Shown here: positions 286-16,953 of the stretch, in pieces
How positions within the stretch are numbered: position 1 is the stretch's first letter
Layout of the letters: every line of letters starts with the position of its first letter
IMG/VR virus record: IMGVR_UViG_2529293063_000008
Reading direction: 5' to 3' (one strand)
Source of the DNA: a virus
Taxonomy: Duplodnaviria > Heunggongvirae > Uroviricota > Caudoviricetes
DNA: 16,953 nucleotides
Notes under the pieces: generated by a model
The model's input: the letters and a program-made list of their open reading frames with translations, nothing else
What the model was told of the DNA's origin: nothing
Databases searched by the model: none
Translations under genes and position numbers: made by a program

Positions 286-1362
286 TTACTCAAATAACTT
301 TTTCACTTCATCAACTGTCTGAAGATAACGTTCGCTCTCAATCTCAATACCTATTGCCTGACGTCCTAACTTCAGCGCAGCTTTAATAGTTGAGCCTGAT
401 CCCATAAAGAAATCGGCAACGATATCTCCGGGGCGTGAACTACTCTTTATAATATGTTCCATCATCGCTGCAGGTTTTTCACATGGGTGCTTGCCAGGAT
501 AATATTGCACAGGAGGAAACTCCCATACATCGGTATAAGGTACATCAGCAGTAACATGAAATGGACGGCGTAAATTTTCATACTGCACCTTCAAATCATC
601 ATACTGCTTCTTTACTTCCTCATAATGTAATTTCAGATCGCTATAACGCTTTTCATGTTCTGAATAATCAACATTAAAAGGATATGGACACTGGACACCG
701 AGTGAATCTGCCTTCCTGCGAAATAATTCGCATAGTTTATTAAAATCAATTAATGATGGAAGCCGCCACTGCGAATAAGAAAACCAGTGTGAACACATCT
801 GCTTTCCTGTCGCTGAATTAATGTCTGCGGCTGATATATCTAACTGACGGCGAGCCAGCGAAAAAGCATCAATTAGTGGAGAAAAAATATTTTTTCTTAA
901 ATCTGCACATTTTGAAGCATAACCTGACTGACCTTTCGCATAACCTGACGCGCCGTAATGCTCTGCAAATAATATTCTTTCAGTAGCAGGAAAATAAGCC
1001 CTTAAACTTTCTTTATGACAACCGCGCCACATACCACTGGGTTTAGCCCAAATGATATGGTTCAGAACATTGAAACGGTCGCGAGTTAATAATTCAATTT
1101 TTGACGCAAGGCGAGAGCCGGTAAACATATACAGGCTGCCATTAGGGGCCAATATCCGCCAAAATTCTGCCAAAAATTCGTCAATCCACCCCAAAAAGTC
1201 AGCATCGCTATCCCACTGGTTATCCCATGCGTTAGCCTTTACGCCGAAGTATGGTGGGTCTGTTGCAATCAAATTGACCGAGTTATCAGGGATGGTTTTG
1301 ATAAATTGCAGAGAATCTGCGCAAACGAGTTGCGCGCCATGAATATTAGTGGTTTTGAACAT
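286..1362 (-). CDS. DNA methyltransferase, beta-class amino-MTase (N6-adenine or N4-cytosine), orphan (no restriction partner seen)
   Basis: DPPY motif (ATDPPYFG) near the N-terminus and FxGSG motif (FFMGSGSTIKAA) near the C-terminus, i.e. motif IV before motif I. Start taken at ATG 1362 (MFKTTNIHG...); the longest ORF starts at ATG 1407. Confidence 0.8.
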   Translation of the reverse strand: MFKTTNIHGAQLVCADSLQFIKTIPDNSVNLIATDPPYFGVKANAWDNQWDSDADFLGWIDEFLAEFWRILAPNGSLYMFTGSRLASKIELLTRDRFNVLNHIIWAKPSGMWRGCHKESLRAYFPATERILFAEHYGASGYAKGQSGYASKCADLRKNIFSPLIDAFSLARRQLDISAADINSATGKQMCSHWFSYSQWRLPSLIDFNKLCELFRRKADSLGVQCPYPFNVDYSEHEKRYSDLKLHYEEVKKQYDDLKVQYENLRRPFHVTADVPYTDVWEFPPVQYYPGKHPCEKPAAMMEHIIKSSSRPGDIVADFFMGSGSTIKAALKLGRQAIGIEIESERYLQTVDEVKKLFE

Positions 1363-1454
1363 AGCTATTATTTTTTTGCCTGGGTAAGCTAACCCGGCGA
1401 TGCGCATCGCGGGTGGGCTTTAGGTTCAGCCTATAGCTCTGGCATGGGTTGACC

Positions 1455-1605: not shown

Positions 1606-1625
1606 TGTGCGACCGTGGTCGCACA
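1606..1625. repeat. Centromere-like palindrome, copy 1 (TGTGCGACC-GT-GGTCGCACA)
   Basis: Core TGCGACCGTGGTCGCA has 7-bp arms and a 2-bp centre; the same core recurs at 5900-5919 and 8345-8360. Same architecture as my recollection of the F sopC SopB site TGGGACC-AC-GGTCCCA. Confidence 0.5.
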
Positions 1626-3702: not shown

Positions 3703-4362
3703 TTACTTAACCCAATTAACTACACCGCCAGCGGCCACAACCGCTTTTTCACAGTCACGCTCATATCTCAAAGGTTGAAATACACCATCAATAAAATATT
3801 TATCTCCACCACATGCTGCAGGAAGTGAAACAGAAAACTGAATATGACCATCCGGAGTTACCGGAGAGTTGCCAGCCTCATACGCGACCCTTATCCAGTG
3901 CATAAGCATTTCTGTACTTACACATCCACAATCAACATCAATTTTGTCATGCTGCTGTTCCAGCCATTGCTCAAAAGTTAACTTGTAAGTTTGGCTTACA
4001 GGTTTGGCTTCCAGTTCTGCTATGTGATTTTTGGCTGATTCCAACTCAATCGACAATTTTTCCAACTGCTCTTTATGCTTTTTATATTCCTGATATGCGT
4101 GCCAAGACTGACCTTTGCGCACACTATCAGTAATATCAGTAATCTGTTCTGGTGTTAGCGTGGTCAGTGGCTGTGTTGGGAAAATAAGCACTTTCCCGGA
4201 ATCCCAATCAAAACCAGCGTGAATTGACTGAACCTCAACTGAAGGTGTTGAACCAATGCTGCCAGGCGAATGAACAACGATTGTTACATCCATATCGCGA
4301 CGATGGCTGTGGTTGTTGGACAAAATACGATTCACCAACTCAGAAAATTTGGAAAATTTCAT
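3703..4362 (-). CDS. Hypothetical phage early protein with central coiled-coil (possibly Ea22-like)
   Basis: 219 aa; ATG at 4362 with SD AAGGGGG; its start overlaps the upstream stop (ATGA). Coiled-coil-like KEQLEKLSIELESAKNHIAELEAK; family assignment is from memory only. Confidence 0.5.
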   Translation of the reverse strand: MKFSKFSELVNRILSNNHSHRRDMDVTIVVHSPGSIGSTPSVEVQSIHAGFDWDSGKVLIFPTQPLTTLTPEQITDITDSVRKGQSWHAYQEYKKHKEQLEKLSIELESAKNHIAELEAKPVSQTYKLTFEQWLEQQHDKIDVDCGCVSTEMLMHWIRVAYEAGNSPVTPDGHIQFSVSLPAACGGDKYFIDGVFQPLRYERDCEKAVVAAGGVVNWVK

Positions 4363-4649
4363 GCTGATCCCCCTTTCTCTGCTCTCTCCTGTCGGAACAT
4401 CACTATCATCAGGTCGCCTTTTGTCGCTATCCTGGCTGTTGTACCTGGTTCAATGCGGCCAAGTTCAAATGCGTCATAGAACGCCTCCAACGCTTTCTGG
4501 CGTTTTTCCTGTTTGCGGCGCTTTCCCCACTGCTTTAGAAAAACAGAGGCCGCCCACTTCCCCGCACTGAACATGATGTAAAACCAACCGAGAAGTGCCA
4601 GACCGGTATTTAGGGCCATATCGATCGTTATCGTGGTGTCGATATTCAC
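4359..4649 (-). CDS. Small membrane protein (about 96 aa)
   Basis: Start chosen at GTG 4647-4649, preceded by SD AGGAGG with a 7-nt spacer and overlapping the upstream stop (TAGTG); ATG 4619 is an alternative. Hydrophobic segment LALLGWFYIMFSAGKWAASVF. Confidence 0.45.
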   Translation of the reverse strand: MNIDTTITIDMALNTGLALLGWFYIMFSAGKWAASVFLKQWGKRRKQEKRQKALEAFYDAFELGRIEPGTTARIATKGDLMIVMFRQERAEKGGSA

Positions 4650-5068
4650 TACGCCACCTCCTGAAAATTTCCCTGATAAAACGCCAACACACGCTGCATA
4701 ACTTCGCTCTTCCGACAATCGTGACAAATCATGTTCAGGCGCCTGTCGTAGCGACGTATTTCTCCGTCAGGTAATGACCAGATAAGGTCTGGATCAACCA
4801 CTACCGATTTCTTCGGCTTTACTCTTGATAGTTTTTTACGGGCGTTTTGCCAGTCCTTGCGTGCTTGTGCAGACAGAAATATCCCGGAGCCAGAGATATA
4901 CAAATCACCACTGGCAGCAAGCTCTCTTGATAAACGACTAACAGCACACCGGCTAATACCAGTTTCATCCGCAAGTTGCCTAACCGTTCCTCGTCCATTC
5001 AGGCGCACGAGTTCCACAATTTGTTTATTCAGTTCTTCCCTCTGTTCTGGTGTAAAAGCCTTTGCCAT
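4649..5068 (-). CDS. HTH DNA-binding protein (139 aa)
   Basis: ATG at 5068 with SD AAGGAG 7 nt upstream, overlapping the upstream stop (TAATG); HTH-like RQLADETGISRCAVSRLSRELA. Confidence 0.6.
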   Translation of the reverse strand: MAKAFTPEQREELNKQIVELVRLNGRGTVRQLADETGISRCAVSRLSRELAASGDLYISGSGIFLSAQARKDWQNARKKLSRVKPKKSVVVDPDLIWSLPDGEIRRYDRRLNMICHDCRKSEVMQRVLAFYQGNFQEVA

Positions 5069-5667
5069 TACGATTCTCCTTGCCCTTTTACAAGACGGGA
5101 GAAAATTGCAGATACATATTTAGCCTGATGAATAGCATCAGCCAGGGCATTGTGTCGTTCGCCATCAAATGGCATATCTTTTTTAGGATTAAAACCAATA
5201 AACTGACCAAGATTAACGATTGTTCGAACATCCTGATCATTAAAATATTCCCACGGACAGGATAAGCCAACGCGCTCATAAGCGCCGCGTAAAATTACAT
5301 TATCGAACGTTGCTCCATTTCCCCATACTTTCAATGTTTTTAAATTACAAGCATGGCAAGTAATAAAGTGTGATAATTCAAAAAGTGCATCATTAATATC
5401 AAGGGCATCATTAGTACAAATTGCGGCTCTGGCTTCCTTGCTCTGCCGCAACCACCATAAAATGGTATCACCATCGGCAACACCACCATTTAACATCGAG
5501 CTTCTGAGATTCACTGGTACATAAAAAGTGGCACCTAATTCCTCACTTTCAGGAGAAAAAAACACTGCCCCGATAGAAACAATTGGAGCACATGTATTAG
5601 TACCCATTGTTTCAAGGTCAATCATTACATCAGACCGTTTCCTGTCGTAAATTATCTGATTAGTCAC
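5068..5667 (-). CDS. DEDDh-type 3'-5' exonuclease (DnaQ-like fold)
   Basis: 199 aa; Exo I-like MIDLETMG near the N-terminus and Exo III-like HNALADA near the C-terminus; GTG start at 5667 with SD GAGGAG 8 nt upstream (ATG 5625 is an alternative). Confidence 0.75.
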   Translation of the reverse strand: MTNQIIYDRKRSDVMIDLETMGTNTCAPIVSIGAVFFSPESEELGATFYVPVNLRSSMLNGGVADGDTILWWLRQSKEARAAICTNDALDINDALFELSHFITCHACNLKTLKVWGNGATFDNVILRGAYERVGLSCPWEYFNDQDVRTIVNLGQFIGFNPKKDMPFDGERHNALADAIHQAKYVSAIFSRLVKGQGES

Positions 5668-5690
5668 GAATAATTCTCCTCAATGTTTAT

Positions 5691-5864
5691 CTATGCCCAA
5701 AACTTCTGTTGATATGTTCTGGATGGTTTTGGTGCTCTTTCTGATTCAGGTAAATGAACATAAACGCAATATCCATCACCTAAAAAATCAGAACGAACAA
5801 CCAGAACTTTCTTACCACGCCGCCGATAAGTATCTGAAAGACGCTCTGCCTCATCATGCGTCAT
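5691..5864 (-). CDS. Small hypothetical protein (57 aa from ATG 5864)
   Basis: The longest ORF begins at GTG 5918 inside the 5900-5919 palindrome; ATG 5864 (SD AGGGG) and ATG 5894 are more plausible starts. Confidence 0.4.
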   Translation of the reverse strand: MTHDEAERLSDTYRRRGKKVLVVRSDFLGDGYCVYVHLPESERAPKPSRTYQQKFWA

Positions 5865-5874
5865 CGGCCCCTGT

Positions 5875-6177
5875 TTAAATGGCGTTATTTTCATTTTCTT
5901 GTGCGACCGTGGTCGCACCCTCTCTAATTTCCAGATAACGCTTAATCCAAAGATTTTCTATATGCTTATTACCTGGCTGATTTGATAAATACCAATCGGC
6001 AATTACAGACTGCTTATTACTATCGGGTCGTGTCCTGTAACCGCAAGTTGGACACCAGATGACATATTCATTTCTTACCCCCGAATACCTTAATTCTGGC
6101 TTCGACGGTTTCCTGAACATAACTTGTTTACAAAGGCAGAATGGCACTTCCTGCCCGATGGCGTTTGATGATTTCAC
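5875..6177 (-). CDS. Zinc-finger protein, possibly Lar-family restriction-alleviation protein
   Basis: Two Cys pairs (PFCLC ... CPTCGYRTRP) about 27 aa apart, followed by ADWYLSN, in the pattern I recall for Lar-like proteins. Start set at GTG 6177 (SD GGAG) so that both Cys pairs are included; overlaps the upstream gene by about 50 nt. Confidence 0.4.
   Translation of the reverse strand: MKSSNAIGQEVPFCLCKQVMFRKPSKPELRYSGVRNEYVIWCPTCGYRTRPDSNKQSVIADWYLSNQPGNKHIENLWIKRYLEIREGATTVAQENENNAI
5900..5919. repeat. Centromere-like palindrome, copy 2
   Basis: TGTGCGACCGTGGTCGCACC; core identical to 1606-1625 and 8345-8360. Lies inside coding sequence at the junction of two small genes. Confidence 0.5.
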
Positions 6178-6838
6178 TGCGCTTCTCCGCCGCATTTAAT
6201 AATGCGGTTCGATTTAAGCTCAGACATCGCGACTTAATTAAAAGCCAGCGTTCTTTATAATCTTGTCTCCAGCTATCAATAGATATATTCAGTAGAAAAC
6301 TCAGATGCCTGTCCTGTTCTCTCTCATCAACTGCCTCAGCACACGTAAGTTCTGATTTAACCTGCTGTGCCGCGTAATAAATCAATTTCCGCATGGCTTT
6401 TTTCGTGGAGGCCTTCATTTTTTTAAAGCCGCCCCCCGAATGAGCAACCAGAAAATCAAGCCATAACCACTGACAAACAATCACATCATTGTTGTAGTCA
6501 GGCTTGCATCCGTAGCAATAATAAAGCCAGGCTGATTCCTCGTTATTCAACTGACAAATAGCCCTGCGCCAGCTGGCGCTCTGAAAATCAATATCAGTGA
6601 GCAACATTGATGATTGTTTAAATGTTTTCCCCTGGTGGAATCTAACCGGCTCAGCGGGAACGGACACTTCGTATGAGTTATCATCCCCCACACTGATTGA
6701 CCGGACTGGTTTATTGTTAAACCGTCCTGATCTACCGAGACGCATCTGCTCAAGCTGGACCTCCAGAATGCCACGCTGGCGATAATGAACATCAGCCAAT
6801 GCCGTAGAGACGCAGCTGCGTATATACTCAAGCTCCAC
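6128..6838 (-). CDS. Hypothetical regulatory protein immediately downstream of cro (position of a cII- or Q-like early regulator)
   Basis: 236 aa; GTG start at 6838 overlapping the cro-like stop by 11 nt (ATG 6745 is an alternative); Cys-rich segment WLYYCYGCKPDYNNDVIVCQW. Function not assignable by eye. Confidence 0.5.
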   Translation of the reverse strand: MELEYIRSCVSTALADVHYRQRGILEVQLEQMRLGRSGRFNNKPVRSISVGDDNSYEVSVPAEPVRFHQGKTFKQSSMLLTDIDFQSASWRRAICQLNNEESAWLYYCYGCKPDYNNDVIVCQWLWLDFLVAHSGGGFKKMKASTKKAMRKLIYYAAQQVKSELTCAEAVDEREQDRHLSFLLNISIDSWRQDYKERWLLIKSRCLSLNRTALLNAAEKRSEIIKRHRAGSAILPL

Positions 6839-7049
6839 GCTTACGACTCTCCTTAATCGACTGCTTTACCCGCCGAGTTGTAAAGTCACTCTTCAGCTTG
6901 TAAGCAGTACGAACTTCAATATCGCTTTGCCGCAATGAAGGAATCTCTCCAGCGGTTAACCATTGGTAAACAGCTCCGGGTGTTACACCTACCCCTGCCG
7001 CTGCTTTTTCAACACTGCCAAAGTGGCGAATAAGTTCTTCTGGTTTCAT
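6828..7049 (-). CDS. Cro-like HTH regulator
   Basis: Start moved to ATG 7049 (MKPEELIRHFGSVEKAAAGVGVTPGAVYQWL...); HTH motif; divergent from the repressor gene across an operator-containing intergenic region. Confidence 0.65.
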   Translation of the reverse strand: MKPEELIRHFGSVEKAAAGVGVTPGAVYQWLTAGEIPSLRQSDIEVRTAYKLKSDFTTRRVKQSIKESRKRGA

Positions 7050-7080
7050 GTTGTTATTATAAACAATAAACAATAATTAA

Positions 7081-7134
7081 AGCCAGCTATAATAAATAAA
7101 TTTTATAGCCAGCTATAAGAAGATCATTTATGAT
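7081..7134. promoter_or_regulatory. Immunity-switch operator/promoter region with two operator copies
   Basis: AGCCAGCTATAA at 7081-7092 and 7109-7120; the second sits in TATAGC-CA-GCTATA with perfect 6-bp arms (7103-7116). TATGAT (7129-7134) lies 6 nt before the repressor ATG, suggesting a leaderless repressor mRNA. Confidence 0.5.
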
Positions 7135-7140
7135 TACAGT

Positions 7141-7737
7141 ATGAAAACACGAGGCGAACGACTGAAAGCACGCCGTTTAGAGATGAAGCTGACGTTGCGA
7201 GAAGTTGCTGAGGCTGTCGATATCTCTATAGCAGGCGTCCAAAACTTAGAACGTGGCGACGTAATGCCGTCACTGGAGATAGGTATTGCCCTGGCTAAGT
7301 GCTTACGCAAGCCAGTACATTGGGTGCTATATGGGACAGAATATGACCCTGATCGCATTCCTGTTATTGGCACAACTGAAAGTGGGCCTGATGAAGAGTG
7401 GAAGCCGGGACAGGTTCCAAATACTGAGCGATTCCTGCCATTCATCAGCCAGCGCAATACTGTGTATGCGTTAACTATCAGCAATCTTACGCAGGGAAAC
7501 TATCAGCCAGGCGATTTTCTCCTGGTCGATTCTGCGCTGGAACTGGTCCCCGGCGAGGATGTTCTGGTTCGTGATACTGCAGGAAATATCACTATCCAGC
7601 GCCTAGCCCGTTTTGATGATGAAAATTACTATCTGGATGGAACAAACTCACAACGCGCTATCTTCAGGAAAAGCGATCTTGAATTTGTTCACCAAATAGT
7701 CGGAACGATCAAATCATTCATGGTTGAGGGTAGATGA
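7141..7737 (+). CDS. CI-like prophage repressor (N-terminal HTH, C-terminal S24-like domain that appears to lack the catalytic lysine)
   Basis: 198 aa; HTH LTLREVAEAVDISIAGVQNLERG; C-terminal GDFLLVDS...GEDVLVR...ITIQRLAR resembles LexA/CI (GDLLAV...VTVKRL) but has Q where the catalytic K is expected. No Ala-Gly in the linker. Confidence 0.8.
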   Translation: MKTRGERLKARRLEMKLTLREVAEAVDISIAGVQNLERGDVMPSLEIGIALAKCLRKPVHWVLYGTEYDPDRIPVIGTTESGPDEEWKPGQVPNTERFLPFISQRNTVYALTISNLTQGNYQPGDFLLVDSALELVPGEDVLVRDTAGNITIQRLARFDDENYYLDGTNSQRAIFRKSDLEFVHQIVGTIKSFMVEGR

Positions 7738-7839
7738 CTTAATACGGGGTTTATTGTTTGCTGTAAATCTGGTTTAATGCAGGGCATATGTTCTGTGGGT
7801 TGACTCAGGTTACAGCAGCAGAAAAAAGACGAAAAAAAA

Positions 7840-7868
7840 CCCGAGTCGGCAAACTCGGGTCCTTTTCA
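7840..7868 (+). terminator. Intrinsic terminator downstream of the repressor gene
   Basis: CCCGAGT-CGGCAAA-ACTCGGG hairpin followed by TCCTTTTC; preceded by an A8 run, so possibly bidirectional. Confidence 0.55.
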
Positions 7869-7982
7869 GGAAGCAGCCACAGTAACGCGACGGATTCCGT
7901 CAATTCAAGATGCGTTTATTGTGGCTGCTCCTGCGGATTTTTTCAACCCGAAAAAACATAATTCGCATGGAATGGCTAAAAA

Positions 7983-10900
7983 ATGACATTAAACGATTTC
8001 TATGCGGATCGCTTTGGCAGCGATCCGTTCTCGCTAATTGAAGCAGCACGGGATGAACTAACCGAGCTGGCACAGATGGCTGGTATCAACTGGCCTGCCT
8101 GTTCCGACAACATCCAACTCAACCCTCGCGGGGGTGTTGAGCGTTACTCTTCATACAATAAAACATCTCCAGAAGCTCTCGAGAAGAGCCTCAAAGGACG
8201 CGTAGAAATTTACTCCCGGCTGGAACACAGCAAAGGGATTGATTACCCGTTCATTAACTTCGTCCATAAAGGCAGCGATGCTGGCTCATGGAGCGGTTTC
8301 TCCTTCCTGTTTTCTGAATATCGCCGTGAGCAACAACGGAATAATGCGACCGTGGTCGCACAACCGGAAGAAGAACGGGCAAGAATAGAACGTCAGGCCG
8401 AAGCACGTCGTCGCCGTGAAGAACAAAAACGAATTAATGACCTGAAAAACAACCAAATTGACCATGAACGTTTGCTGGGATGGCTGGCATTTCACAGCGC
8501 GTGGGAACATGCTCCTGCAGAAGACGGCTCATGGCCATATGCGATTAAAAAAGGTATTCGTGACGTTTTTAATTCGTGTGATGTGCGTCGCGTGACCAGT
8601 CACGACAGCGCAAAATGGAGCAGGGGGCCAACCACGTATATGGCTATCCCTCTGGCTCACCTGGACGGTCGTTACGATGGTCGTATTGTGGGTTGGCAGC
8701 GAATCGACAAACAAGGTGGAAAATACCAGACCAGCGCAGTAACCAGCGGCGATTTCGTCGGTGCCTGCTTTGTTATCGGTGAGCTGAAAGGGGCGCAAAA
8801 CATCGCTGTTACAGAAGGTTTTGCTACTGGTGCATCCATCTGGCTTGCCACGAAAAAAGATAAACGCTTTGACGCTGTGGTTGTCGCTGTATCCGCTAAC
8901 AACATGGTTCATGTTGTGGAACAACTGGTAAACATGTACCCGGCGGCAAAAATCACCTGCGCACTGGATAATGACCGGAAATCTGCCACAGAAGGAAAAG
9001 GGAATACCGGCCTGCGGACTGGCTATGAAATCTTATCGAAATTCAACGATGTCCGCTGCGTCTATCCAACTTTTGAAGACGATCCGCAAATGGAGTGCAG
9101 TGACTTCAACGACCTGCACAAACTACGTGGACTTCGTGAAACAGCACGTCAACTATTTGCAACAGCAAACCGCCTGAAAACTGGTACTGATTTGCTATCT
9201 CTGACGCTCAACCGCCTGAAGACAATTAAGCGGGATAACCGTCGTACTTTTGCCAAAGAGCTGCTGAGAGCGGTGGATATTGGCATGCTAACCTGTCCGG
9301 TTCCTAACAGTCCGTCAGATTTATTTAACATGTTCTGCATCGTTCTGCGTGAAATGGGACTGGAAAATATCTATCGCGCTACGGTAAAAGACCACATTGC
9401 CCGTCGCCTGAATAAAAAGTGCCGTATTGCCCAGGCTCCGCGCTCTTTCAGCGAACGCATAACTGATCCCAATAAACGCCCTCAACATATCACATATAAG
9501 CGTTTTGAAACTTCGGTAATGACCGATGATGTCCTGAAGTACGTGCAATCACTACAGGGGATAGTCATCGTCCGTGCTGGTATGGGTTCCGGCAAATCTA
9601 CTGGATTGTTACGACCGTTAATGCATAGCTCAGAACGTGGTATCTCTGTTGCTCACCGTGTCTCCCTTATTGGCGGCCTGTGGGAAATGATGACAGAAGG
9701 AAAAGGTGTAAAAGCCGATATCCTGCACTATCAGGATCCTGGCTATCAGGAAATAGCTCCATACGCCAGTAAACTGACCATCTGCATAAACTCGATTGTT
9801 AAAAACTGCTGGCAACCGTTGATGCGCCAGCACGACTATTTTGGCTTTGACGAGGCCACACAAGGGCTACGTGCCGTTCTTTCCGGTCGGGCTATGGAAA
9901 ACCCGGTGGCTGTATTCAATACGCTAATTGACGCGCTGGCCAGAACAGAACAACACCCAATCATGGTGGATGCTGATGCGAATGATCTGCTGGTTGACCT
10001 GGCTGAACTGGCTATGAAACGCCGTGAAGAACTAGGTTTACCGGCATGGCTGCAGATCCACGTAATTGAATTACCTGTTGATGTTCGCAACCGCGAAACA
10101 GGTGAGCCAATCCGGGTTTTTTATACAGAAAAAGATCGCATCATGACCGAGGTGGTGAAAGCTGTATCGGATGGCGAAAAAATCATGTTGGCCACCGACA
10201 GCTCCACCTTTGCAGAAGATGTGACAGCCACCCTGAGAATGCATTTTCCTGGTAAGAAATTTCTGTGTGTAAACCAGAAAAACAAACCAGAGCCAGAAGT
10301 TGAAGCATTTACCAATCAACCGAAAAAGATGGTCAAAAAATACGACGGCCTGATTTATAGCCCGTCTATTTCATCCGGCGTGTCGATTGAGCAAAAACAT
10401 TTTGACCGTCATTTCGGCATGTTCTGTGGTGAAGTTGTACCCAGCGACGCAGTGCAAATGCTACGCCGCGACCGTACAGCAAAAGAATTTATTATCGGCT
10501 TTGATAAAGCTCGTGCAAAACGTGAAACTGACCCGCAAAAAATAGAACGAGCATTCGCCCAGGCATTGCTTGCTACCGCAGGTATGAACGGTGAACTGAC
10601 GGATGTCGTTTTCGATGGCGACCGTATATCAATGGGGGTGGCCAATACCGACTTTACCAGGATGAAAATTAAAGCAGCCGCTATTGAAGCGACTGCGCGT
10701 AACGACTACGCCAGCAACATGATCTGCATCATGCACAGCGACGGTTATAAGGTATCGCCGCTGGCCACCGATTATGCTGCGAATGATATCGGTAAAGAGC
10801 TGCGTAAAGAAGCGCGGGATATTGTGTGGGAACAGACACTGGATCTGCATCTCAATACAGAAACTCCACAAGAATCAGAGCGTGAAGAACTGCTAAAAAA

Positions 10901-11978
10901 ACGCGCGCTGACGCTTGAAGAACAGGCAAAACTTGTCCGCTGGGATATTGAAAACGAACTGAAACTACCGGTTGAAGAAGGCACGCTGAAATTCTATTTC
11001 GATGGTGCTCGAGACAAAGTTCGCCGCTATGAAACAATGCTTTTAGATGAGGTAACAGCTCGTCGTTACGACCGGGAAGAAGCAGCCATCAATTTTACCT
11101 ACGCATACCGTCAGGCGGGACAGTGGCAATATTTTGTAGTGACCGCGATGACTCGCGAGCAGGCTGATGATGTCTTTAAAACTAAATTCCCTGGAATAAT
11201 CGATCACAAGGTAAAAGCTACTCCTACTGTTGAAGTCGGGGCGCGCGGTTTCTATGCGCTTAAATCAGCAACTCTCCGGCAGTACTTTATCGACTGCGGT
11301 ATCAACCCTGAGACTATGACCGGCGAGGCGACTCAGGAGCGTCTCAAATTTGCTCGAGATAACCTCATGACAGCCGAACGCCGTGACCTGTTGAATAACG
11401 TTCTGCACATTGGTGGTTTTATGACGCCAAAAGGGAAGCCTAAAGTGCCGGAAGCGTTGTTTAAAAACATTTGCGACTCTCTTGGCCTTAAAACAGGTAA
11501 ACGTCGCGGCAGAGACGGCGATAAGCGTCCAACCTTGCGTTTTGTTGAGCCTGAATCAGCGGCATTTATGCTGGATATTCTTGCTCAGCGTCAGAAAGAT
11601 GGCCTAACCCTGAAAACGCGTAAAGCCGAGAAGACCGCCATCGAAATGGATCGCGATTTGGATCTCAATATATATATGGATGATAAAACGCGATCCACAA
11701 ACGAGCAGGTTCAAAACGCCCCTCATTCAGTAATTTCTGAGGCTTTGGCTGTGTTGCCAGTGGTTGTACCTGAGTCCTGGGCGATGAGTGCGCTTTCCGG
11801 TGAGGAGCTGGCCACTATGTCATCATGGTCATCAGCCAGCATAGCTATGACGTTTGCATCTCTGTACCTCACAGAGTTCATGGATCACTTATCCAGCAAT
11901 GAACTGCGGCGGTTACGTGAATACATTACCGGGAATAGCCCATGCAGCTACGAAGAGCAGGGCGCTTTCTATGGGTAA
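7983..11978 (+). CDS. repA: Multidomain replication protein: primase (TOPRIM) fused to a P-loop helicase/NTPase, N15 RepA-like
   Basis: 1331 aa; TOPRIM-like IAVTEGFATGASIWLA ... ITCALDND; Walker A VRAGMGSGKST; size matches my memory of N15 RepA. Confidence 0.85.
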   Translation: MTLNDFYADRFGSDPFSLIEAARDELTELAQMAGINWPACSDNIQLNPRGGVERYSSYNKTSPEALEKSLKGRVEIYSRLEHSKGIDYPFINFVHKGSDAGSWSGFSFLFSEYRREQQRNNATVVAQPEEERARIERQAEARRRREEQKRINDLKNNQIDHERLLGWLAFHSAWEHAPAEDGSWPYAIKKGIRDVFNSCDVRRVTSHDSAKWSRGPTTYMAIPLAHLDGRYDGRIVGWQRIDKQGGKYQTSAVTSGDFVGACFVIGELKGAQNIAVTEGFATGASIWLATKKDKRFDAVVVAVSANNMVHVVEQLVNMYPAAKITCALDNDRKSATEGKGNTGLRTGYEILSKFNDVRCVYPTFEDDPQMECSDFNDLHKLRGLRETARQLFATANRLKTGTDLLSLTLNRLKTIKRDNRRTFAKELLRAVDIGMLTCPVPNSPSDLFNMFCIVLREMGLENIYRATVKDHIARRLNKKCRIAQAPRSFSERITDPNKRPQHITYKRFETSVMTDDVLKYVQSLQGIVIVRAGMGSGKSTGLLRPLMHSSERGISVAHRVSLIGGLWEMMTEGKGVKADILHYQDPGYQEIAPYASKLTICINSIVKNCWQPLMRQHDYFGFDEATQGLRAVLSGRAMENPVAVFNTLIDALARTEQHPIMVDADANDLLVDLAELAMKRREELGLPAWLQIHVIELPVDVRNRETGEPIRVFYTEKDRIMTEVVKAVSDGEKIMLATDSSTFAEDVTATLRMHFPGKKFLCVNQKNKPEPEVEAFTNQPKKMVKKYDGLIYSPSISSGVSIEQKHFDRHFGMFCGEVVPSDAVQMLRRDRTAKEFIIGFDKARAKRETDPQKIERAFAQALLATAGMNGELTDVVFDGDRISMGVANTDFTRMKIKAAAIEATARNDYASNMICIMHSDGYKVSPLATDYAANDIGKELRKEARDIVWEQTLDLHLNTETPQESEREELLKKRALTLEEQAKLVRWDIENELKLPVEEGTLKFYFDGARDKVRRYETMLLDEVTARRYDREEAAINFTYAYRQAGQWQYFVVTAMTREQADDVFKTKFPGIIDHKVKATPTVEVGARGFYALKSATLRQYFIDCGINPETMTGEATQERLKFARDNLMTAERRDLLNNVLHIGGFMTPKGKPKVPEALFKNICDSLGLKTGKRRGRDGDKRPTLRFVEPESAAFMLDILAQRQKDGLTLKTRKAEKTAIEMDRDLDLNIYMDDKTRSTNEQVQNAPHSVISEALAVLPVVVPESWAMSALSGEELATMSSWSSASIAMTFASLYLTEFMDHLSSNELRRLREYITGNSPCSYEEQGAFYG
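8345..8360. repeat. Centromere-like palindrome, copy 3 (inside repA coding sequence)
   Basis: TGCGACCGTGGTCGCA exact; encodes ...NATVVAQ... within repA. Confidence 0.5.
8592..8603. repeat. Palindrome GTGACCAGTCAC (copy 2, inside repA)
   Basis: Flanked as CGTGACCAGTCACG; same family as 3353-3364 and 13196-13215. Confidence 0.35.
11648..11696. other. Candidate internal replication origin within the 3' part of repA
   Basis: 8-bp inverted repeat GGATCGCG / CGCGATCC (11648-11655, 11689-11696) flanks the AT-rich TCAATATATATATGGATGATAAAA and includes three GATC sites. I recall the N15 ori mapping inside the 3' part of repA. Confidence 0.3.
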
Positions 11979-12162
11979 TCAGTGGATATTATCTTTGTGT
12001 CTCTTGCTTTGTGTGTTCCAGCAATGGTTTTGGTTCATAGATCGAAAGTCTCACAAGGAAAACATGAAGGCCAGGAAGGCGATGTTTCGTGGTGAACAAC
12101 TCGCGCAGACTTATCGTATGTGGAAACGTTTCTATCGTGATTTTTCGGTGAACGGGGAGTAA
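11971..12162 (+). CDS. Possible small membrane protein overlapping the repA stop (63 aa)
   Basis: ATG 11971 in a different frame from repA (8-nt overlap, ATGGGTAA); hydrophobic WILSLCLLLCVFQQWFWFI then basic tail; weak SD. Confidence 0.25.
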   Translation: MGNQWILSLCLLLCVFQQWFWFIDRKSHKENMKARKAMFRGEQLAQTYRMWKRFYRDFSVNGE

Positions 12163-12166
12163 AAAT

Positions 12167-12493
12167 ATGTCTACTACTGCATTTTTGGACAAACTTGATT
12201 ACCGTCAGCTGCAGTTTTGCCGGGATGAATGCGATCGACGCATTAAGGCTATCCAGGAGGAAGAAAAAAAGGTTGCCTGGGCTGTAACAGATCGTGGCCT
12301 TATCTTTGGCTGGTTCCGTACGGAGGATTATCTGAAAGCAGTGGAATTATTGGCGCGTGAGGCTGCTGAGCGTTGGGAACGAGCCGACAAGGAAAACCCG
12401 GAGACGAAATATGAACTGAATCTCTACATCGAGGGCAACCGTCTACCATTGTCAGAGTATAACGCTTTGTTTGCTGATGGTGAGTGGGGTTAA
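12167..12493 (+). CDS. Hypothetical protein (108 aa)
   Basis: ATG 12167 with SD GGGGAG 7 nt upstream; no recognisable motif. Confidence 0.55.
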   Translation: MSTTAFLDKLDYRQLQFCRDECDRRIKAIQEEEKKVAWAVTDRGLIFGWFRTEDYLKAVELLAREAAERWERADKENPETKYELNLYIEGNRLPLSEYNALFADGEWG

Positions 12494-12495
12494 AA

Positions 12496-12891
12496 ATGGC
12501 TGTTCAATCATACAAATACGAATCCCCTTTGGATAAGGGATACATTCGTATCAAGTTAAGTCGTTCTCAGCATAAGGCTATTTTTAAGGTAAGGAAAATT
12601 CGCATATTGGATGCGTATGCGTATTACTACAACGGTGAAAATGTTGTTGTTGAACACTTTCTTGCACGATGGTTTGTAGCTCTGATTTTTGTCCCTCTCC
12701 TGTTAATTGGTACTTTTGTGGATGGTTTTCCTAGTACATGGCGGGAGATAAAGAAAGGCCTATTCCCGCGTAAGTACGGCGGATTTTCGCAAGATAGCTG
12801 GCGAGTTATACCTGGTAAACATTCTGTGGATGAGCAGCCGATTGTTGATTCCTGGTTGAAGCGTATGGCTGATGCTAAAAAAGTTGATTGA
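12496..12891 (+). CDS. Hypothetical protein with one predicted TM segment (131 aa)
   Basis: ATG 12496, 2 nt after the upstream stop (longest ORF starts GTG 12484); hydrophobic WFVALIFVPLLLIGTFV. Confidence 0.5.
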   Translation: MAVQSYKYESPLDKGYIRIKLSRSQHKAIFKVRKIRILDAYAYYYNGENVVVEHFLARWFVALIFVPLLLIGTFVDGFPSTWREIKKGLFPRKYGGFSQDSWRVIPGKHSVDEQPIVDSWLKRMADAKKVD

Positions 12892-12909
12892 GTTGTGGAA
12901 GGAGTATTT

Positions 12910-13134
12910 ATGAACTGTAACAAAAATGAAGAAACTCGCCTGGTTTGGACGGTAGTAATCGGAGATAAAAAGGGCGGTGAAGAGCCTCATTTTGATTATT
13001 CTGTGGCTTTGCAGGCTCTCATCCTTGAAGCACAGGGATACCAACAAGAGATGCAGAAGAACCCTCAACTGGAACCTCGACCAATTGGCCTATTCTGCGA
13101 GCGAGTATCAGCGGCGGAACTCCCTGATATCTGA
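12910..13134 (+). CDS. Hypothetical protein (74 aa)
   Basis: ATG 12910 with strong SD AAGGAG 6 nt upstream (longest ORF starts GTG 12895). Confidence 0.5.
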   Translation: MNCNKNEETRLVWTVVIGDKKGGEEPHFDYSVALQALILEAQGYQQEMQKNPQLEPRPIGLFCERVSAAELPDI

Positions 13135-13195
13135 TGCCCTCCAACAGCTGATCAGGTTCTGATCAGTTAGTAAAGCAAACTATAAAAACACCTGT

Positions 13196-13215
13196 CCCCG
13201 TGACTGGTCACGGGG
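13196..13215. repeat. Perfect hairpin-forming palindrome CCCCGTGA-CTGG-TCACGGGG (GTGACYRGTCAC family, copy 3)
   Basis: 8-bp GC-rich arms with a 4-nt loop; lies 20 bp upstream of a candidate promoter for the antisense-RNA/antirepressor operon. Confidence 0.45.
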
Positions 13216-13235
13216 TAAAATGTCTTTTCAAATTA

Positions 13236-13265
13236 TTGACGTGTGCGTCGTTTTGACGGTAAAGT
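13236..13265 (+). promoter_or_regulatory. Candidate sigma70 promoter of the antirepressor (immI-like) operon
   Basis: TTGACG (13236-13241), 18-nt spacer, TAAAGT (13260-13265). Confidence 0.3.
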
Positions 13266-13378
13266 TACTTCGCTGCGGTAAATCCCGTAGCCGGGACTCT
13301 CAACCCCGAAATCCGAACGACGCACAACACGCGCCAGCGTGTTTTTTTGTGTGTATGAGCCTGCGCATATCCGAATTA

Positions 13379-13460
13379 TGGTGGCTCAGGTGGGGCAGCC
13401 GAAAGGCTGGCCGGTGTCGTTTGGGCCGGTGTTGAGAACCCCGCTTGGGCTACCACCCCA
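13379..13460 (+). ncRNA. Candidate c4-type antisense RNA (P1 c4 / N15 CA RNA analogue); boundaries approximate
   Basis: About 80-nt GC-rich segment closed by GGTGG (13380-13384) / CCACC (13453-13457) with internal hairpins. Loop GGTGTTGAGAACCCC (13428-13442) is complementary to ACTCTCAACCCC (13296-13307) and ATTCTCAACTC (13466-13476), which flank it upstream of the icd-like start. Confidence 0.4.
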
Positions 13461-13514
13461 TAGAGATTCTCAACTCTGGTGGTAGCACTGTTTTACCAAA
13501 CAAGAGTGCATACC

Positions 13515-13679
13515 ATGTTCAAATTCAAATTTGCGGCAGTCGTTCGCACAGACAAAAAGTCACACATCCATCATCTTTCCACCATCGCGTCATCTGAACG
13601 GGAAGCTCGTCGCCAGTTCGCCAGCCGGTTTGTCCTGGTATTGTCTGCCCGTATTCCGGTGCGCGAGGTGGCTGCATGA
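13515..13679 (+). CDS. Icd-like small protein (first gene of the antirepressor operon)
   Basis: ATG 13515 (MFKFKFAAVVRTDKKSHIHHLSTIASSEREARRQFASRFVLVLSARIPVREVAA); the longest ORF begins at GTG 13479. Stop overlaps the next start (ATGA). Resemblance to Icd-like proteins is from memory. Confidence 0.5.
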   Translation: MFKFKFAAVVRTDKKSHIHHLSTIASSEREARRQFASRFVLVLSARIPVREVAA

Positions 13680-13909
13680 ATCAGGTAAAAATGAACACTG
13701 TTGGCCTGCTGGAATCGTTGGATGAACGTCTGGCTCAGGTCTATGCGCTTGTGTCATCCGCCCATCGTACAGTCTCCAGCTGTGAGGCGTCGATTTATCT
13801 CTCAGAAGCCGGGAAGCTCCTTCAAATTGCGTGTGAGTTGACACACAAAGCACAGGGGTATTCAGCATCTCTCTCGTCGCAATTGCAGCACAATAAGGAG
13901 GCCAAATGA
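13676..13909 (+). CDS. Hypothetical protein (77 aa), translationally coupled middle gene of the antirepressor operon
   Basis: SD GAGGTGG 6 nt upstream; ATGA overlaps at both ends. Confidence 0.55.
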   Translation: MNQVKMNTVGLLESLDERLAQVYALVSSAHRTVSSCEASIYLSEAGKLLQIACELTHKAQGYSASLSSQLQHNKEAK

Positions 13910-14688
13910 GCGCGTTAGCTGTATTTTCGTTTCAGGAAGAGCATCAGGTTCGTGTAGTGATGATTAACGGCGATCCGTGGTTTGTAGCGGCTGATGTTTG
14001 TAATGCCATCGGGATTATCAATCATCGTGATGCTGTTGGTAAGTTGGATGAAGACGAAAAGGGGGTCGGTTCAACAGACACCCTTGGAGGTAAACAGGGA
14101 GTGACAATTATTAACGAATCCGGCCTCTATACCCTAATCCTCCGCTGCCGTGACGCGGTGAAGCAAGGCACAACAGCTTGGCGGTTTCGCAAATGGGTAA
14201 CGAACGAAGTCTTGCCCTCTATTCGCAAAAATGGAGAGTACGTTTACGTCGAGCCAGAGCCAATGCGAGCAGCAGAGCCGTTGAACTGGAGGCAGAAAGA
14301 GTATCTGCGAGGGCTGATTAACGATATTGCACAAAGTTTTCAATACCGAAATGCCTGGATTAGCGGTGTATGGTTGGCTTTGCGTCGGGCGTGTCGTAAT
14401 CCATCCCCGAACCCCATAACTGTTGATGATTTGCCAGCAATTACGGCAGAACTGCGCCGGATTTTGACGGCTGCTGAGTCGGCATTGGGGAACATGCGCA
14501 CGTATGAACGAGAGTTGTTGCGTGATGTTGTTCGTGGTGGTAGGCGGAGTATGTCGTGTGGTGATTTGCCCATCACCGATATCAACTCTGATCTGGAAAA
14601 GGCGTTACCCGCGCATTTTGAACTGGCAGTTCAAAAACTTGAGCAGTTATCCGCGCAGCTAAAGCCAGCAGAAATCACCAATAAATAG
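13906..14688 (+). CDS. Phage antirepressor with N-terminal Bro-N/AntA-type domain
   Basis: 260 aa; SD AAGGAGG; N-terminal FSFQEEHQVRVVMINGDPWFVAADVCNAIGIINHRDAVGKLDEDEKG...IINESGLYTLILRCR...KWVTNEVLPSIRKNGEY matches the antirepressor signature as I remember it. Confidence 0.8.
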   Translation: MSALAVFSFQEEHQVRVVMINGDPWFVAADVCNAIGIINHRDAVGKLDEDEKGVGSTDTLGGKQGVTIINESGLYTLILRCRDAVKQGTTAWRFRKWVTNEVLPSIRKNGEYVYVEPEPMRAAEPLNWRQKEYLRGLINDIAQSFQYRNAWISGVWLALRRACRNPSPNPITVDDLPAITAELRRILTAAESALGNMRTYERELLRDVVRGGRRSMSCGDLPITDINSDLEKALPAHFELAVQKLEQLSAQLKPAEITNK

Positions 14689-14823
14689 GGTTGACCAGCC
14701 CGAATTTATGCCCTTCTTAGAGAAGGGAAGCCTCGCAGTCGGGGCGGTGATGTCTGTGGTTGCAGCCGCGTTTCCTCCGTTACTTCTGCCCTTTGCAGGG
14801 GGCAGGCGAGGTAGGTCACACAA

Positions 14824-14847
14824 CAAGGCACCGTTAATTCGGTGCCT
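14824..14847. terminator. Hairpin between convergent ant and telN genes (likely terminator)
   Basis: AAGGCACCG-TTAATT-CGGTGCCTT, 9-bp stem, immediately beyond the telN stop (14860). Confidence 0.45.
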
Positions 14848-14859
14848 TTACTGTATGCT

Positions 14860-16761
14860 TTAACCGAAATATGTCAGCCATGCTAACTGCATTGCTGACA
14901 TGGGGCTGTTTGCACTGCCGGACCACGCATAATTCTGGCCATTATAATGAAACTCAACAACGTATGAGCCATCACCAATATTTCTCACCGGCTTAAATAC
15001 CGGCTTAGATACAGGCGAAGAAGGTGCAGGCGGTTGCTGTTCTTCTACGCTCTCTTCCTCTTCCTCTTCCTCTTCCTCTATCTCAATTTCGTCGTCATCC
15101 AGATCGTCATCCTCTGACAATTCATCCGCCAGTTCAGGTATTGCTTCCAGTTCTTCTTCGTCAGGCATAACGATTTCTGGAGTATCTATTTTCAGTTGCC
15201 ATTGTCCGTTTTCGCCAACAAATTGCCCCAGAGCATCAGCAGCAAATTCCAGGTATCGACTAATCATTGTTGGGCTAAATTTGAACGCTCTTAGAGTGCT
15301 GTTCGTGATTTTTATAGAGGGGTCCTGCTCTACCAGCTGCTTAACTGTGTTATGCAGACGAACCCCGGCATCTCCTCTGGCGAATCCAGGCATTTCGTCA
15401 TCAAGCTGCTGCAATGCTTCCAGCCTGGTATTTTCGTTTCCAGTATTTGGCCTCCATGTCTTTGAGAAGTTGGCCAGCTTGAATTGCTTATAGTGTAATT
15501 GAGTGTTTTCATCGTCATGGCCTAAAATTTCCATAAAGAAAACATCTTCATCTACGTTTTTCCAACGAGGATCTACGCGGAAAAACATTTCATACGCAAT
15601 ACGGGCATAAATAGCACGACTATCTTTATAAACACGGCGGTCATCTTTGAAAAATGATTTAACCCACGGGTTAAAAGCCTTTGCTAATATGGCATTAATA
15701 CGTCCGTTTTCAGAGCGTGTGTCGTTATCTCCATAACCTTTAACGACATCATCAAAATCAGATGCTGCTGGGCATGAGCGAAGTACATTTATTAAATAAA
15801 CAAATGTTTTTGCTTCGCATAATGTATATATTTTTCTGGTTATATCATCAGAAGTTCTTTTTTTAGCTTGGCCTAAAAAATCAACGGTATACTTACCAGA
15901 AACAGTAAATGTACCTTGATACATAATCTCAATCATTCGTCTTCCTGACAATGCAGCAAGTGCAAATGCCAAAGGAGCCATACCTGAACGAGTGTTTAGA
16001 TTATTTAATGTAGCAGGGCTATTTATAATATCGTAAATAGCTTGCATATATTTAGGGTAATCAATGACCACCACGTTACGTTTCTTATTGTGCAGAACGT
16101 CCGCCCATCGTTGCTGGATAGATGCACGTTCGGCAGGGCTTAGTTGAAGATGATAGAGAATCTCATGGTTAACTTTTAGCTGATTCAACTCCTCAAGTAA
16201 GGCAGATCCTTGCTGTAGTAATTTATATAAATAATCGCGCTTATCTTTCCAGTTATCGCTAGTTAAATCAGAAATGGCGAATTGCCACTCTTTATATTTA
16301 TTTGATAATTTCAATAACTTATTATGACTTTTGTTATCGCCAATTCTGATATTAGATAAATCTTCTGATAGAGGGAGAATTAATTTTAATTTTGCCTGTA
16401 AAGCTGACATTCTCTGGCGAATATCGGCAGCAGGTAGAGAAAGCCATGACAATAGCTCCTCATTATATAAAGGATACTTTTCAGATAGGCGATGTATATT
16501 TTTTTCAAAGCTATGATGAAGTTTATCATCAAACCGTTTTCTGGCCCTGCTCATATAGGCATTGAATGTGTTGGCTGTAATTCTTTTTTCTAATCCTTTC
16601 CCCCTAAACTTTCGCTTGTCATTAAATAATGCATTTTTAAATTTTAATGCAACAGCCTTTATTTTTTTTGTTTTCTCCCCTTGAGGACGGTCAGAGTTAT
16701 CTATTGACTCAACATCGCTAACAAGTGAGTTTATTAATTCACCGATTTTTACTTTGCTCAT
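14860..16761 (-). CDS. telN: Protelomerase (telomere resolvase), TelN-like
   Basis: 633 aa; N-terminus MSKVKIGELIN..., length and an acidic Glu/Asp-rich stretch before the C-terminus match my memory of N15 TelN. SD AGGAGAGG. The gene abuts the terminal half-palindrome. Confidence 0.8.
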   Translation of the reverse strand: MSKVKIGELINSLVSDVESIDNSDRPQGEKTKKIKAVALKFKNALFNDKRKFRGKGLEKRITANTFNAYMSRARKRFDDKLHHSFEKNIHRLSEKYPLYNEELLSWLSLPAADIRQRMSALQAKLKLILPLSEDLSNIRIGDNKSHNKLLKLSNKYKEWQFAISDLTSDNWKDKRDYLYKLLQQGSALLEELNQLKVNHEILYHLQLSPAERASIQQRWADVLHNKKRNVVVIDYPKYMQAIYDIINSPATLNNLNTRSGMAPLAFALAALSGRRMIEIMYQGTFTVSGKYTVDFLGQAKKRTSDDITRKIYTLCEAKTFVYLINVLRSCPAASDFDDVVKGYGDNDTRSENGRINAILAKAFNPWVKSFFKDDRRVYKDSRAIYARIAYEMFFRVDPRWKNVDEDVFFMEILGHDDENTQLHYKQFKLANFSKTWRPNTGNENTRLEALQQLDDEMPGFARGDAGVRLHNTVKQLVEQDPSIKITNSTLRAFKFSPTMISRYLEFAADALGQFVGENGQWQLKIDTPEIVMPDEEELEAIPELADELSEDDDLDDDEIEIEEEEEEEEESVEEQQPPAPSSPVSKPVFKPVRNIGDGSYVVEFHYNGQNYAWSGSANSPMSAMQLAWLTYFG

Positions 16762-16795
16762 CTTTCCTCTCCTGATTATCCGCTCGGATTATCGT

Positions 16796-16885
16796 AACAC
16801 AATTTGAGAATAAGATAACTAATAACGCGTTAACTTAGGCACAAACTAACAGAACACAATAACGGATAATAAATAAAAACACAAT
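16796..16885. repeat. Three direct AACACAAT repeats upstream of telN
   Basis: Copies at 16796-16803, 16853-16860 and 16878-16885, between the telN start and the terminal palindrome. Confidence 0.4.
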
Positions 16886-16924
16886 ATCAGAACGTTAAAA
16901 TTTGTTCCTTGACTTTGTTCTGAA

Positions 16925-16953
16925 AATCAGCACATAATTACCCATTATACGCG
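16925..16953. other. Half of a telomere-resolution palindrome (telO-like); the window ends at or 1 nt past the dyad centre
   Basis: AATCAGCACATAATTACCCATTATACGCG differs at about 2 positions from the N15 telRL half-site as I remember it (TATCAGCACACAATTGCCCATTATACGCG) and stops in the CG-rich centre. Confidence 0.65.

Follow-up and report, generated by a model that had tools for sequence, protein, structure and literature searches.

Three identical copies of a 16-bp inverted repeat lie kilobases apart in a 16,953-nucleotide stretch of Caudoviricetes DNA, referred to here as the window. What binds them, and to what end, is the question that this locus raises. A preliminary description of the DNA had proposed that they are SopB or ParB centromere sites scattered as in the phage N15. 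With a probability that we put at roughly 0.93, the palindromes are centromere sites (equivalents of parS or sopC) of a type Ia SopABC partition system carried by an N15-like linear plasmid-prophage. Sequence identity with known sites, synteny, the presence of sopAB in near-identical replicons, and covariation of the SopB recognition helix with the site are established directly in the analyses that follow, which also strongly suggest an element-restricted distribution.

Three dispersed copies of one palindrome

A pattern search of the whole window returned three exact matches to TGCGACCGTGGTCGCA, at 1608–1623 (copy 1), 5902–5917 (copy 2) and 8345–8360 (copy 3). The search agrees with the three identical palindromes that had been described and with the interval that had been given for copy 3, whereas the intervals for the other two (1606–1625 and 5900–5919) are the same 16-mer with 2 extra bp at either end. 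On the plus strand the centre is GT in every copy. Shuffling gave an expectation of 0.05 matches against the three observed, and none of 200 dinucleotide-preserving shuffles equalled that number, which excludes a chance origin of the three copies. No fourth site was found in the window by pattern search, even with three mismatches allowed. The true palindrome spans 22 bp at copy 1 (1605–1626), 18 bp at copy 2 (5901–5918) and 16 bp at copy 3, and the gaps between sites are 4.3 and 2.4 kb, with no tandem arrangement.

The placement of the copies, one between genes and two within coding regions, is also as previously described. Copy 1, which is intergenic, follows the stop codon of a gp51 homolog by 6 bp and lies 20 bp upstream of the −35 element of a late promoter. 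Copy 2, downstream of Q, falls within orf QD1 at its 3′ end; the alignment of QD1 has the third-codon-position variation that is typical of a real gene. Copy 3 lies within repA, 362 bp from the start codon, where it is read as the codons A-T-V-V-A.

The two central bases of copy 2 (5909–5910) are GT in the window and in a 99.9%-identical replicon (L010), and AC, in the same orientation, in four relatives of 96–98% identity (L001, L003, L005 and L006), so that the 2-bp core is flipped between them. The flip could reflect either two substitutions or palindrome-mediated template switching at SopB sites, which we mention as a small possibility.

The terminal arm of a linear plasmid-prophage

By megablast, the window groups with the linear plasmid-prophages N15 and phiKO2. 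It is 96–98% identical to E. coli elements recorded as ‘plasmids’ or phages, including PhiR46_1 and YDC107_1, and 74–77% identical to phiKO2 and N15; the closest match in the phages, PLSDB plasmids and complete E. coli genomes searched is 97.4% identical. The GC content of the window is 45%. Its genes comprise a methyltransferase (286–1407, minus strand), homologs of gp51 and gp50 (1630–2110, minus), a RelE/HTH pair (2258–2856, plus), orf QD1 with copy 2 (106 amino acids; 5875–6195, minus), a Q-like antiterminator gene (PF06323; 6128–6838, minus), cro (6828–7073, minus), cB (7141–7737, plus) and repA with copy 3, which encodes a primase/helicase-type replication protein of 1,331 amino acids (7983–11978, plus). 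A secondary-immunity region separates repA from the protelomerase gene telN (TelK/ResT Pfam domains; 14860–16761, minus).

The window closes with a telomere half-site (16926–16953): its last bases, ...ATCAGCACATAATTACCCATTATACGCG, make up half of the telRL palindrome. L010 runs on across this junction, reading ...TATACGCG before it and CGTATAATGGGG after it. In both L010 and PhiR46_1 the centre of telRL falls between ...CCCATTATACGCG and CGTATAATGGG..., and the window stops exactly there. Because it ends in the middle of the telRL palindrome, the window corresponds to the last 17 kb of the plasmid form with hairpin ends, and it constitutes the replication, immunity and late-regulation arm of an N15/phiKO2-type linear plasmid-prophage.

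Several other features of this arm deserve mention. The RelE/HTH pair at 2258–2856 consists of a RelE/ParE-family toxin and an HTH antitoxin (103 and 95 amino acids) that match N15 genes 49 and 48, and adds a second stability module, of the post-segregational kind, to the arm that bears the putative centromere sites. Two Rfam matches at gathering level, isrK (13272–13347, plus strand; 54.9 bits) and a C4 antisense RNA (13374–13460, plus strand; 71.8 bits), give the interval 13272–13460 the appearance of a P1-like secondary-immunity (immC) module, located upstream of icd/antirepressor genes. The surrounding interval, 12897–14115, is mosaic: relatives that are 97–99.9% identical elsewhere are 88–89% identical or unaligned here, a drop that points to exchange of the secondary-immunity/accessory region between elements.

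Some public records of related phages or plasmids that are listed as ‘complete’, among them L001 (CP025712.1), L007, L008 and PLSDB records of 62–91 kb such as NZ_CP014491.1, are hairpin read-through assemblies, in which the right arm is duplicated and inverted around the telomere. YDC107_1 was rejected as a whole-replicon reference, as it is one of these read-through assemblies, with an inverted right-arm duplication and without the sopAB arm.

Orthologs of the N15 and phiKO2 sites

The arms of the window palindromes, TGCGACC/GGTCGCA, are the same as those of N15 IR1–IR4 and of the sites in the phiKO2 genome. In N15 these arms are at 33480 (in repA), 35931 (after Q), 41125 (the annotated late −35 follows after 22 bp) and 45562, and at the four syntenic spots the GenBank record of phiKO2 (NC_005857) carries misc_features labelled ‘putative plasmid partitioning sites’. 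Three-way alignments with N15 and phiKO2 identify copy 1 as the positional ortholog of IR3 and of the phiKO2 site at 45384–45401, copy 2 as that of IR2 and 40345–40362, and copy 3 as that of IR1 and 37905–37922. The N15 repA copy carries a single arm change, GCT for GCA, which is synonymous. A conservation-island test on these alignments was weakly informative, given that the flanks are themselves 83–88% conserved; stronger arguments come from the perfect arms across genomes that are about 75% identical, from the variable centre and from covariation with SopB.

The same dispersed layout occurs in L003, L005, L006 and many viral contigs. The full-length relatives that we counted (PhiR46_1, pZ1323HEC0355-3, pEC12401-3, N15 and phiKO2) have four or five sites each, all within the region that runs from repA to beyond the lysis genes, and all with perfect arms except for the one change in the N15 repA copy. 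No further sites were found in these five replicons at up to two arm mismatches. Their fourth and fifth sites lie 1.4–1.7 kb beyond the position of the window’s left end, so that the window probably holds three of the element’s four or five. In L003, two sites (17794–17809 and 18014–18029) lie 220 bp apart after the lysis genes, and the same pair occurs in L001 and L006; in these close E. coli relatives the pair stands where N15 and phiKO2 have a single site (IR4), making five sites per replicon.

IR1–IR4 are given as the natural SopB sites of the N15 centromere, on which F SopB is non-functional; N15 SopB forms foci on a 4×IR array, and a hybrid SopB with the DNA-binding domain of F does not (PMC7205306). 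By analogy with these N15 experiments, we infer that the sites in the window would bind SopB and be active in partition. The N15-style scattering of SopB/ParB sites that the preliminary description had proposed is thus borne out by arms identical to IR1–IR4, by synteny and by the sopAB genes of relatives.

Cognate sopAB beyond the telomere

The gene content of the 17-kb window includes no partition operon, as had been noted from the outset. A sopAB operon elsewhere on the element had been named as a check on the centromere proposal; L010, at 99.9% identity, has one, as has every full-length relative. L010 was located by an exact-protein lookup of the window’s TelN; its TelN is identical, and its DNA is 99.9% identical to the window over 4333–12897 and 14605–16953 (10.9 kb). 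About 440 bp past the telomere junction, L010 encodes SopA (388 amino acids) and SopB (321 amino acids), and a sopA–sopB operon likewise stands beside the telomere in PhiR46_1, pZ1323HEC0355-3, pEC12401-3, N15 and phiKO2. The cognate genes are therefore seen by proxy, outside the window, in near-identical and related replicons. The window is without them because the sopBA genes that phage or junction-spanning assemblies place across telRL belong to the opposite end of the linear plasmid.

In the SopB protein of L010, a SoPB_HTH domain is recognized (PF18090; E = 7e-25); the protein shares 72% identity with its N15 counterpart and matches the F SopB–sopC structure 3MKY (E = 7e-38). Its recognition helix, NIDRNIITRC, is of the N15 type (D-R-N).

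Site and recognition helix covary

For F SopB, arm positions 2, 4, 5, 6 and 7 are critical and positions 1 and 3 matter least, and a purine–pyrimidine centre is needed for efficient binding (Pillet et al., PMC3177203). The same study mentions sites related to those of F that are ‘dispersed over the genome’ in three phage genomes (PMC3177203). Its base numbering agrees with the F site that had been given for comparison, TGGGACC-AC-GGTCCCA, and the 7-2-7 likeness drawn from it holds, the N15-type arm differing from the F arm TGGGACC at position 3 only. No F-type arm TGGGACC was found in the window in a search at three mismatches; all arms are TGCGACC.

The purine–pyrimidine rule measured for F extends to 45 of 46 distinct N15-type site contexts (39 with AC/GT, 3 with GC and 3 with AT centres), the sole exception being IR2 of N15. 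The window copies obey it throughout, with GT/AC in all three.

An alignment of SopB proteins from five systems relates the base at arm position 3 to the recognition helix. Where that base is C, the helix carries D-R-N (NIDRNIITRC in this element, GIDRNIVNRC in N15 and GVDRNIITRC in phiKO2); where it is G, the helix carries S-R-K (NISRKIITRC in F and NISRKIIMRC in PY54). All five proteins share the residues equivalent to R190, R195 and R219 of F. The covariation of base 3 with two residues of the helix amounts to a simple natural specificity switch, and fixed arms, a centre that is free as long as it is purine–pyrimidine, and covariation with the helix are together the signature of a protein-binding site and not of an RNA structure.

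This signature weighs against an RNA-level reading, in which the palindromes would be hairpins or intrinsic terminators. Each copy does fold into a stable hairpin, the plus strand of copy 1 (1596–1640) forming a stem of 10 bp with U5 behind it (−18.1 kcal/mol, z = −4.0), and the N15 record labels 45560–45584 (IR4) a ‘putative rho-indep. transcription terminator’. A terminator scan, however, flagged no copy of the three. Copies 2 and 3 lie on the sense strand of coding regions and have no U-tract, and the U-tract of copy 1 is antisense to all neighbouring genes and is missing at N15 IR3. An RNA structure would also fit poorly with a centre that varies, arms that stay fixed and a base 3 that covaries with a protein helix. 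With no copy flagged, and a U-tract at copy 1 alone and in antisense, we rejected the identification as intrinsic terminators, and we consider it very improbable that the palindromes act as RNA hairpins.

The same covariation speaks to which protein recognizes the sites. Another DNA-binding protein of the element, such as the winged-helix gp51, the CB repressor or RepA, could in principle bind them in place of SopB: copy 1 comes directly after the gp51 gene, whose phiKO2 counterpart is annotated as a winged helix-turn-helix protein, and copy 3 is inside repA. But the CB operators are annotated elsewhere in N15 (34056–34094 and 34729–34793), the SopB foci of N15 form on these exact inverted repeats and are lost in the hybrid with the F DNA-binding domain (PMC7205306), and the single base that differs from the F site covaries with the SopB helix in five systems. 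Recognition by a protein other than SopB is hardly credible on this evidence, and SopB is the protein that we assign to the sites.

A 16-mer probably restricted to N15-type elements

A generic repeat would recur in the host genome, and the distribution of the 16-mer argues against that reading. In a scan of one genome per species, at least 120 stretches contained the exact 16-mer, where about 277 are expected by chance. Among the matches listed, 118 of 120 were singletons, at a chance level, in unrelated genomes (median GC content of 64%, as against 45% for the window), the only enterobacterial multi-copy case was a 46-kb N15-type contig of Pseudocitrobacter, and no match was to an enterobacterial chromosome, for which the chance expectation is about 0.002 per 5 Mb. 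Viral contigs gave a complementary result: among the matches listed, 17 of the 19 stretches with multiple sites carry N15-type genes, and one of the two others comes from elsewhere on an N15-type contig. Of the viral stretches listed that have no N15-type genes, 85 of 87 were singletons. This pattern strongly suggests that the 16-mer is specific to the element and is not a generic host repeat.

A 45-kb plasmid of Vibrio sp. MA40-2 (L060) has one exact 16-mer, at 7178–7193, together with weak homologs of Q and QD1, and may be distantly related to the telomere phages and rely on a similar site.

A fixed distance to the late promoter

The preliminary description had also drawn attention to a promoter and a short-leader terminator next to copy 1. 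Both are located on the minus strand, where the promoter is orthologous to the late promoter of N15 and phiKO2: TTGGCA-17-TATTGT at 1559–1587 corresponds to the N15 −35 and −10 elements (41162/41185) and to the ‘putative late promoter’ of phiKO2. The intrinsic terminator of the short late leader, at 1502–1522, is conserved in N15 and phiKO2 and is the presumed target of antitermination by Q. Judged by sequence, promoter and terminator form a lambda-PR′-like Q target. On the opposite strand, the stem of copy 1 and the TTTTT that follows it resemble a terminator that would act on transcripts antisense to the late operon.

From the site to TTGGCA, the distance is 20–21 bp in all 12 distinct family sequences, and the sequence of the spacer varies. 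We propose, tentatively, that this fixed gap, kept in N15, phiKO2 and more distant relatives, is a direct architectural link to the Q-dependent late promoter, with the SopB complex as a required upstream element that either activates or silences; we think it possible, though we would not expect it. If it were true, the segregation status of the plasmid would gate lytic gene expression.

The preliminary description had added that partition-protein binding at copy 1 could silence the late unit, which is the weak part of its reading. In a stronger form, this idea makes the palindromes mainly transcriptional operators: SopB, or its spreading from copy 1, would silence the late promoter, the copies in QD1 and repA would be roadblocks, and partition would be secondary. 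The constancy of the gap to the −35 element across 12 distinct family sequences, despite drift of the spacer, speaks for this form, and the other copies adjoin Q and sit inside repA. Silencing of flanking genes by ParB and SopB is an established phenomenon. Such silencing has served as an assay (PMC7205306). Against this stand the further sites of relatives, which lie after the lysis genes and away from any known promoter, and the 11 scattered sites of the phage PY54, which include structural-gene regions. The title of a 2008 N15 study, the only one known to address this question and cited in PMC11652158, states that ‘the Sop system ... facilitates late gene expression’; as far as a title can tell, ‘facilitates’ indicates a positive effect, the opposite of silencing. 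We consider a mainly operator function very improbable; any regulatory role is better taken as an addition to partition, with which it is compatible.

Proposed mechanism and significance

As centromere sites, the palindromes would work as follows. A dimer of SopB, encoded with SopA beside the other telomere, would recognize each 16-bp inverted repeat, placing one helix-turn-helix on each TGCGACC arm and adding contacts from the conserved arginine equivalent to F R219. The complexes at the sites would nucleate larger SopB assemblies, which the SopA ATPase would position on the nucleoid, ensuring a copy of the low-copy plasmid for every daughter cell. The sites would act while spread over about 10 kb of the replication, immunity and late-control arm, unlike the tandem array of F. 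At its fixed 20–21 bp from the late promoter that depends on Q, copy 1 probably links the Sop complex to the transcription of late genes as well.

The centromere biology of sites of this kind is already known, and the element is an uncharacterised close relative of known ones. The partition function of N15 and its dispersed layout were reportedly established more than 20 years ago; Ravin and Lane in 1999, and Grigoriev and Lobocka in 2001, are said to have described the N15 SopABC centromere sites through binding and plasmid stabilisation. The main value of the present analysis is annotation. The palindromes may be entered as SopB centromere sites orthologous to N15 IR3, IR2 and IR1, and the window as the right arm, next to the telomere, of an N15-like plasmid-prophage with sopAB at the other telomere. 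The purine–pyrimidine rule, the covariation of base 3 and the invariant spacing to the late promoter are modest points that leave current understanding unchanged.

Relation to known centromeres

The sopC centromere of F resembles the sites in the window in its 7-2-7 inverted repeats, its purine–pyrimidine centre and its homologous SopB. In F, however, 12 tandem repeats of 43 bp form one cluster beside sopB, whereas the sites described here are single, kilobases apart and, in the plasmid form, tens of kilobases from sopB. The two also differ in specificity, with base 3 of the arm G and helix S-R-K in F, and C and D-R-N here. An F-plasmid-type sopC centromere was accordingly rejected, there being no tandem array and the sites lying on the opposite arm from sopB.

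PY54, a telomere phage of Yersinia, shares with the window the arrangement of dispersed single palindromes on a linear plasmid-prophage, and combines it with the specificity of F. In its genome (L253), F-type sites of the form TGGGACC-NN-GGTCCCA, some of them with a single change in an arm, are dispersed over 11 positions, at 508, 6566, 22251, 26513, 30984, 31240, 34394, 39870, 40976, 41121 and 44409, including sites in the structural-gene arm and in the interior of spyB. It differs from the window in these F-type arms, in the number of copies and in the helix of SpyB, which is S-R-K like that of F.

In phiKO2, four sites with identical arms occupy positions syntenic with those of N15, and three of them match the copies in the window. 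It differs in its Klebsiella host and in a DNA identity of about 74%, and its sites were annotated by similarity only (Casjens et al. 2004). N15 differs from the window in its centres (AC, TC, AT and AC, as against GT/AC throughout here) and in flanking DNA that is about 75% identical, and close relatives of the window carry a fifth site. It is like the window in its dispersed 7-bp arms, which lie in repA about 365 bp from the start codon, after Q and before the late promoter, and like L010 in the D-R-N helix of its SopB and in a sopAB operon that adjoins the telomere.
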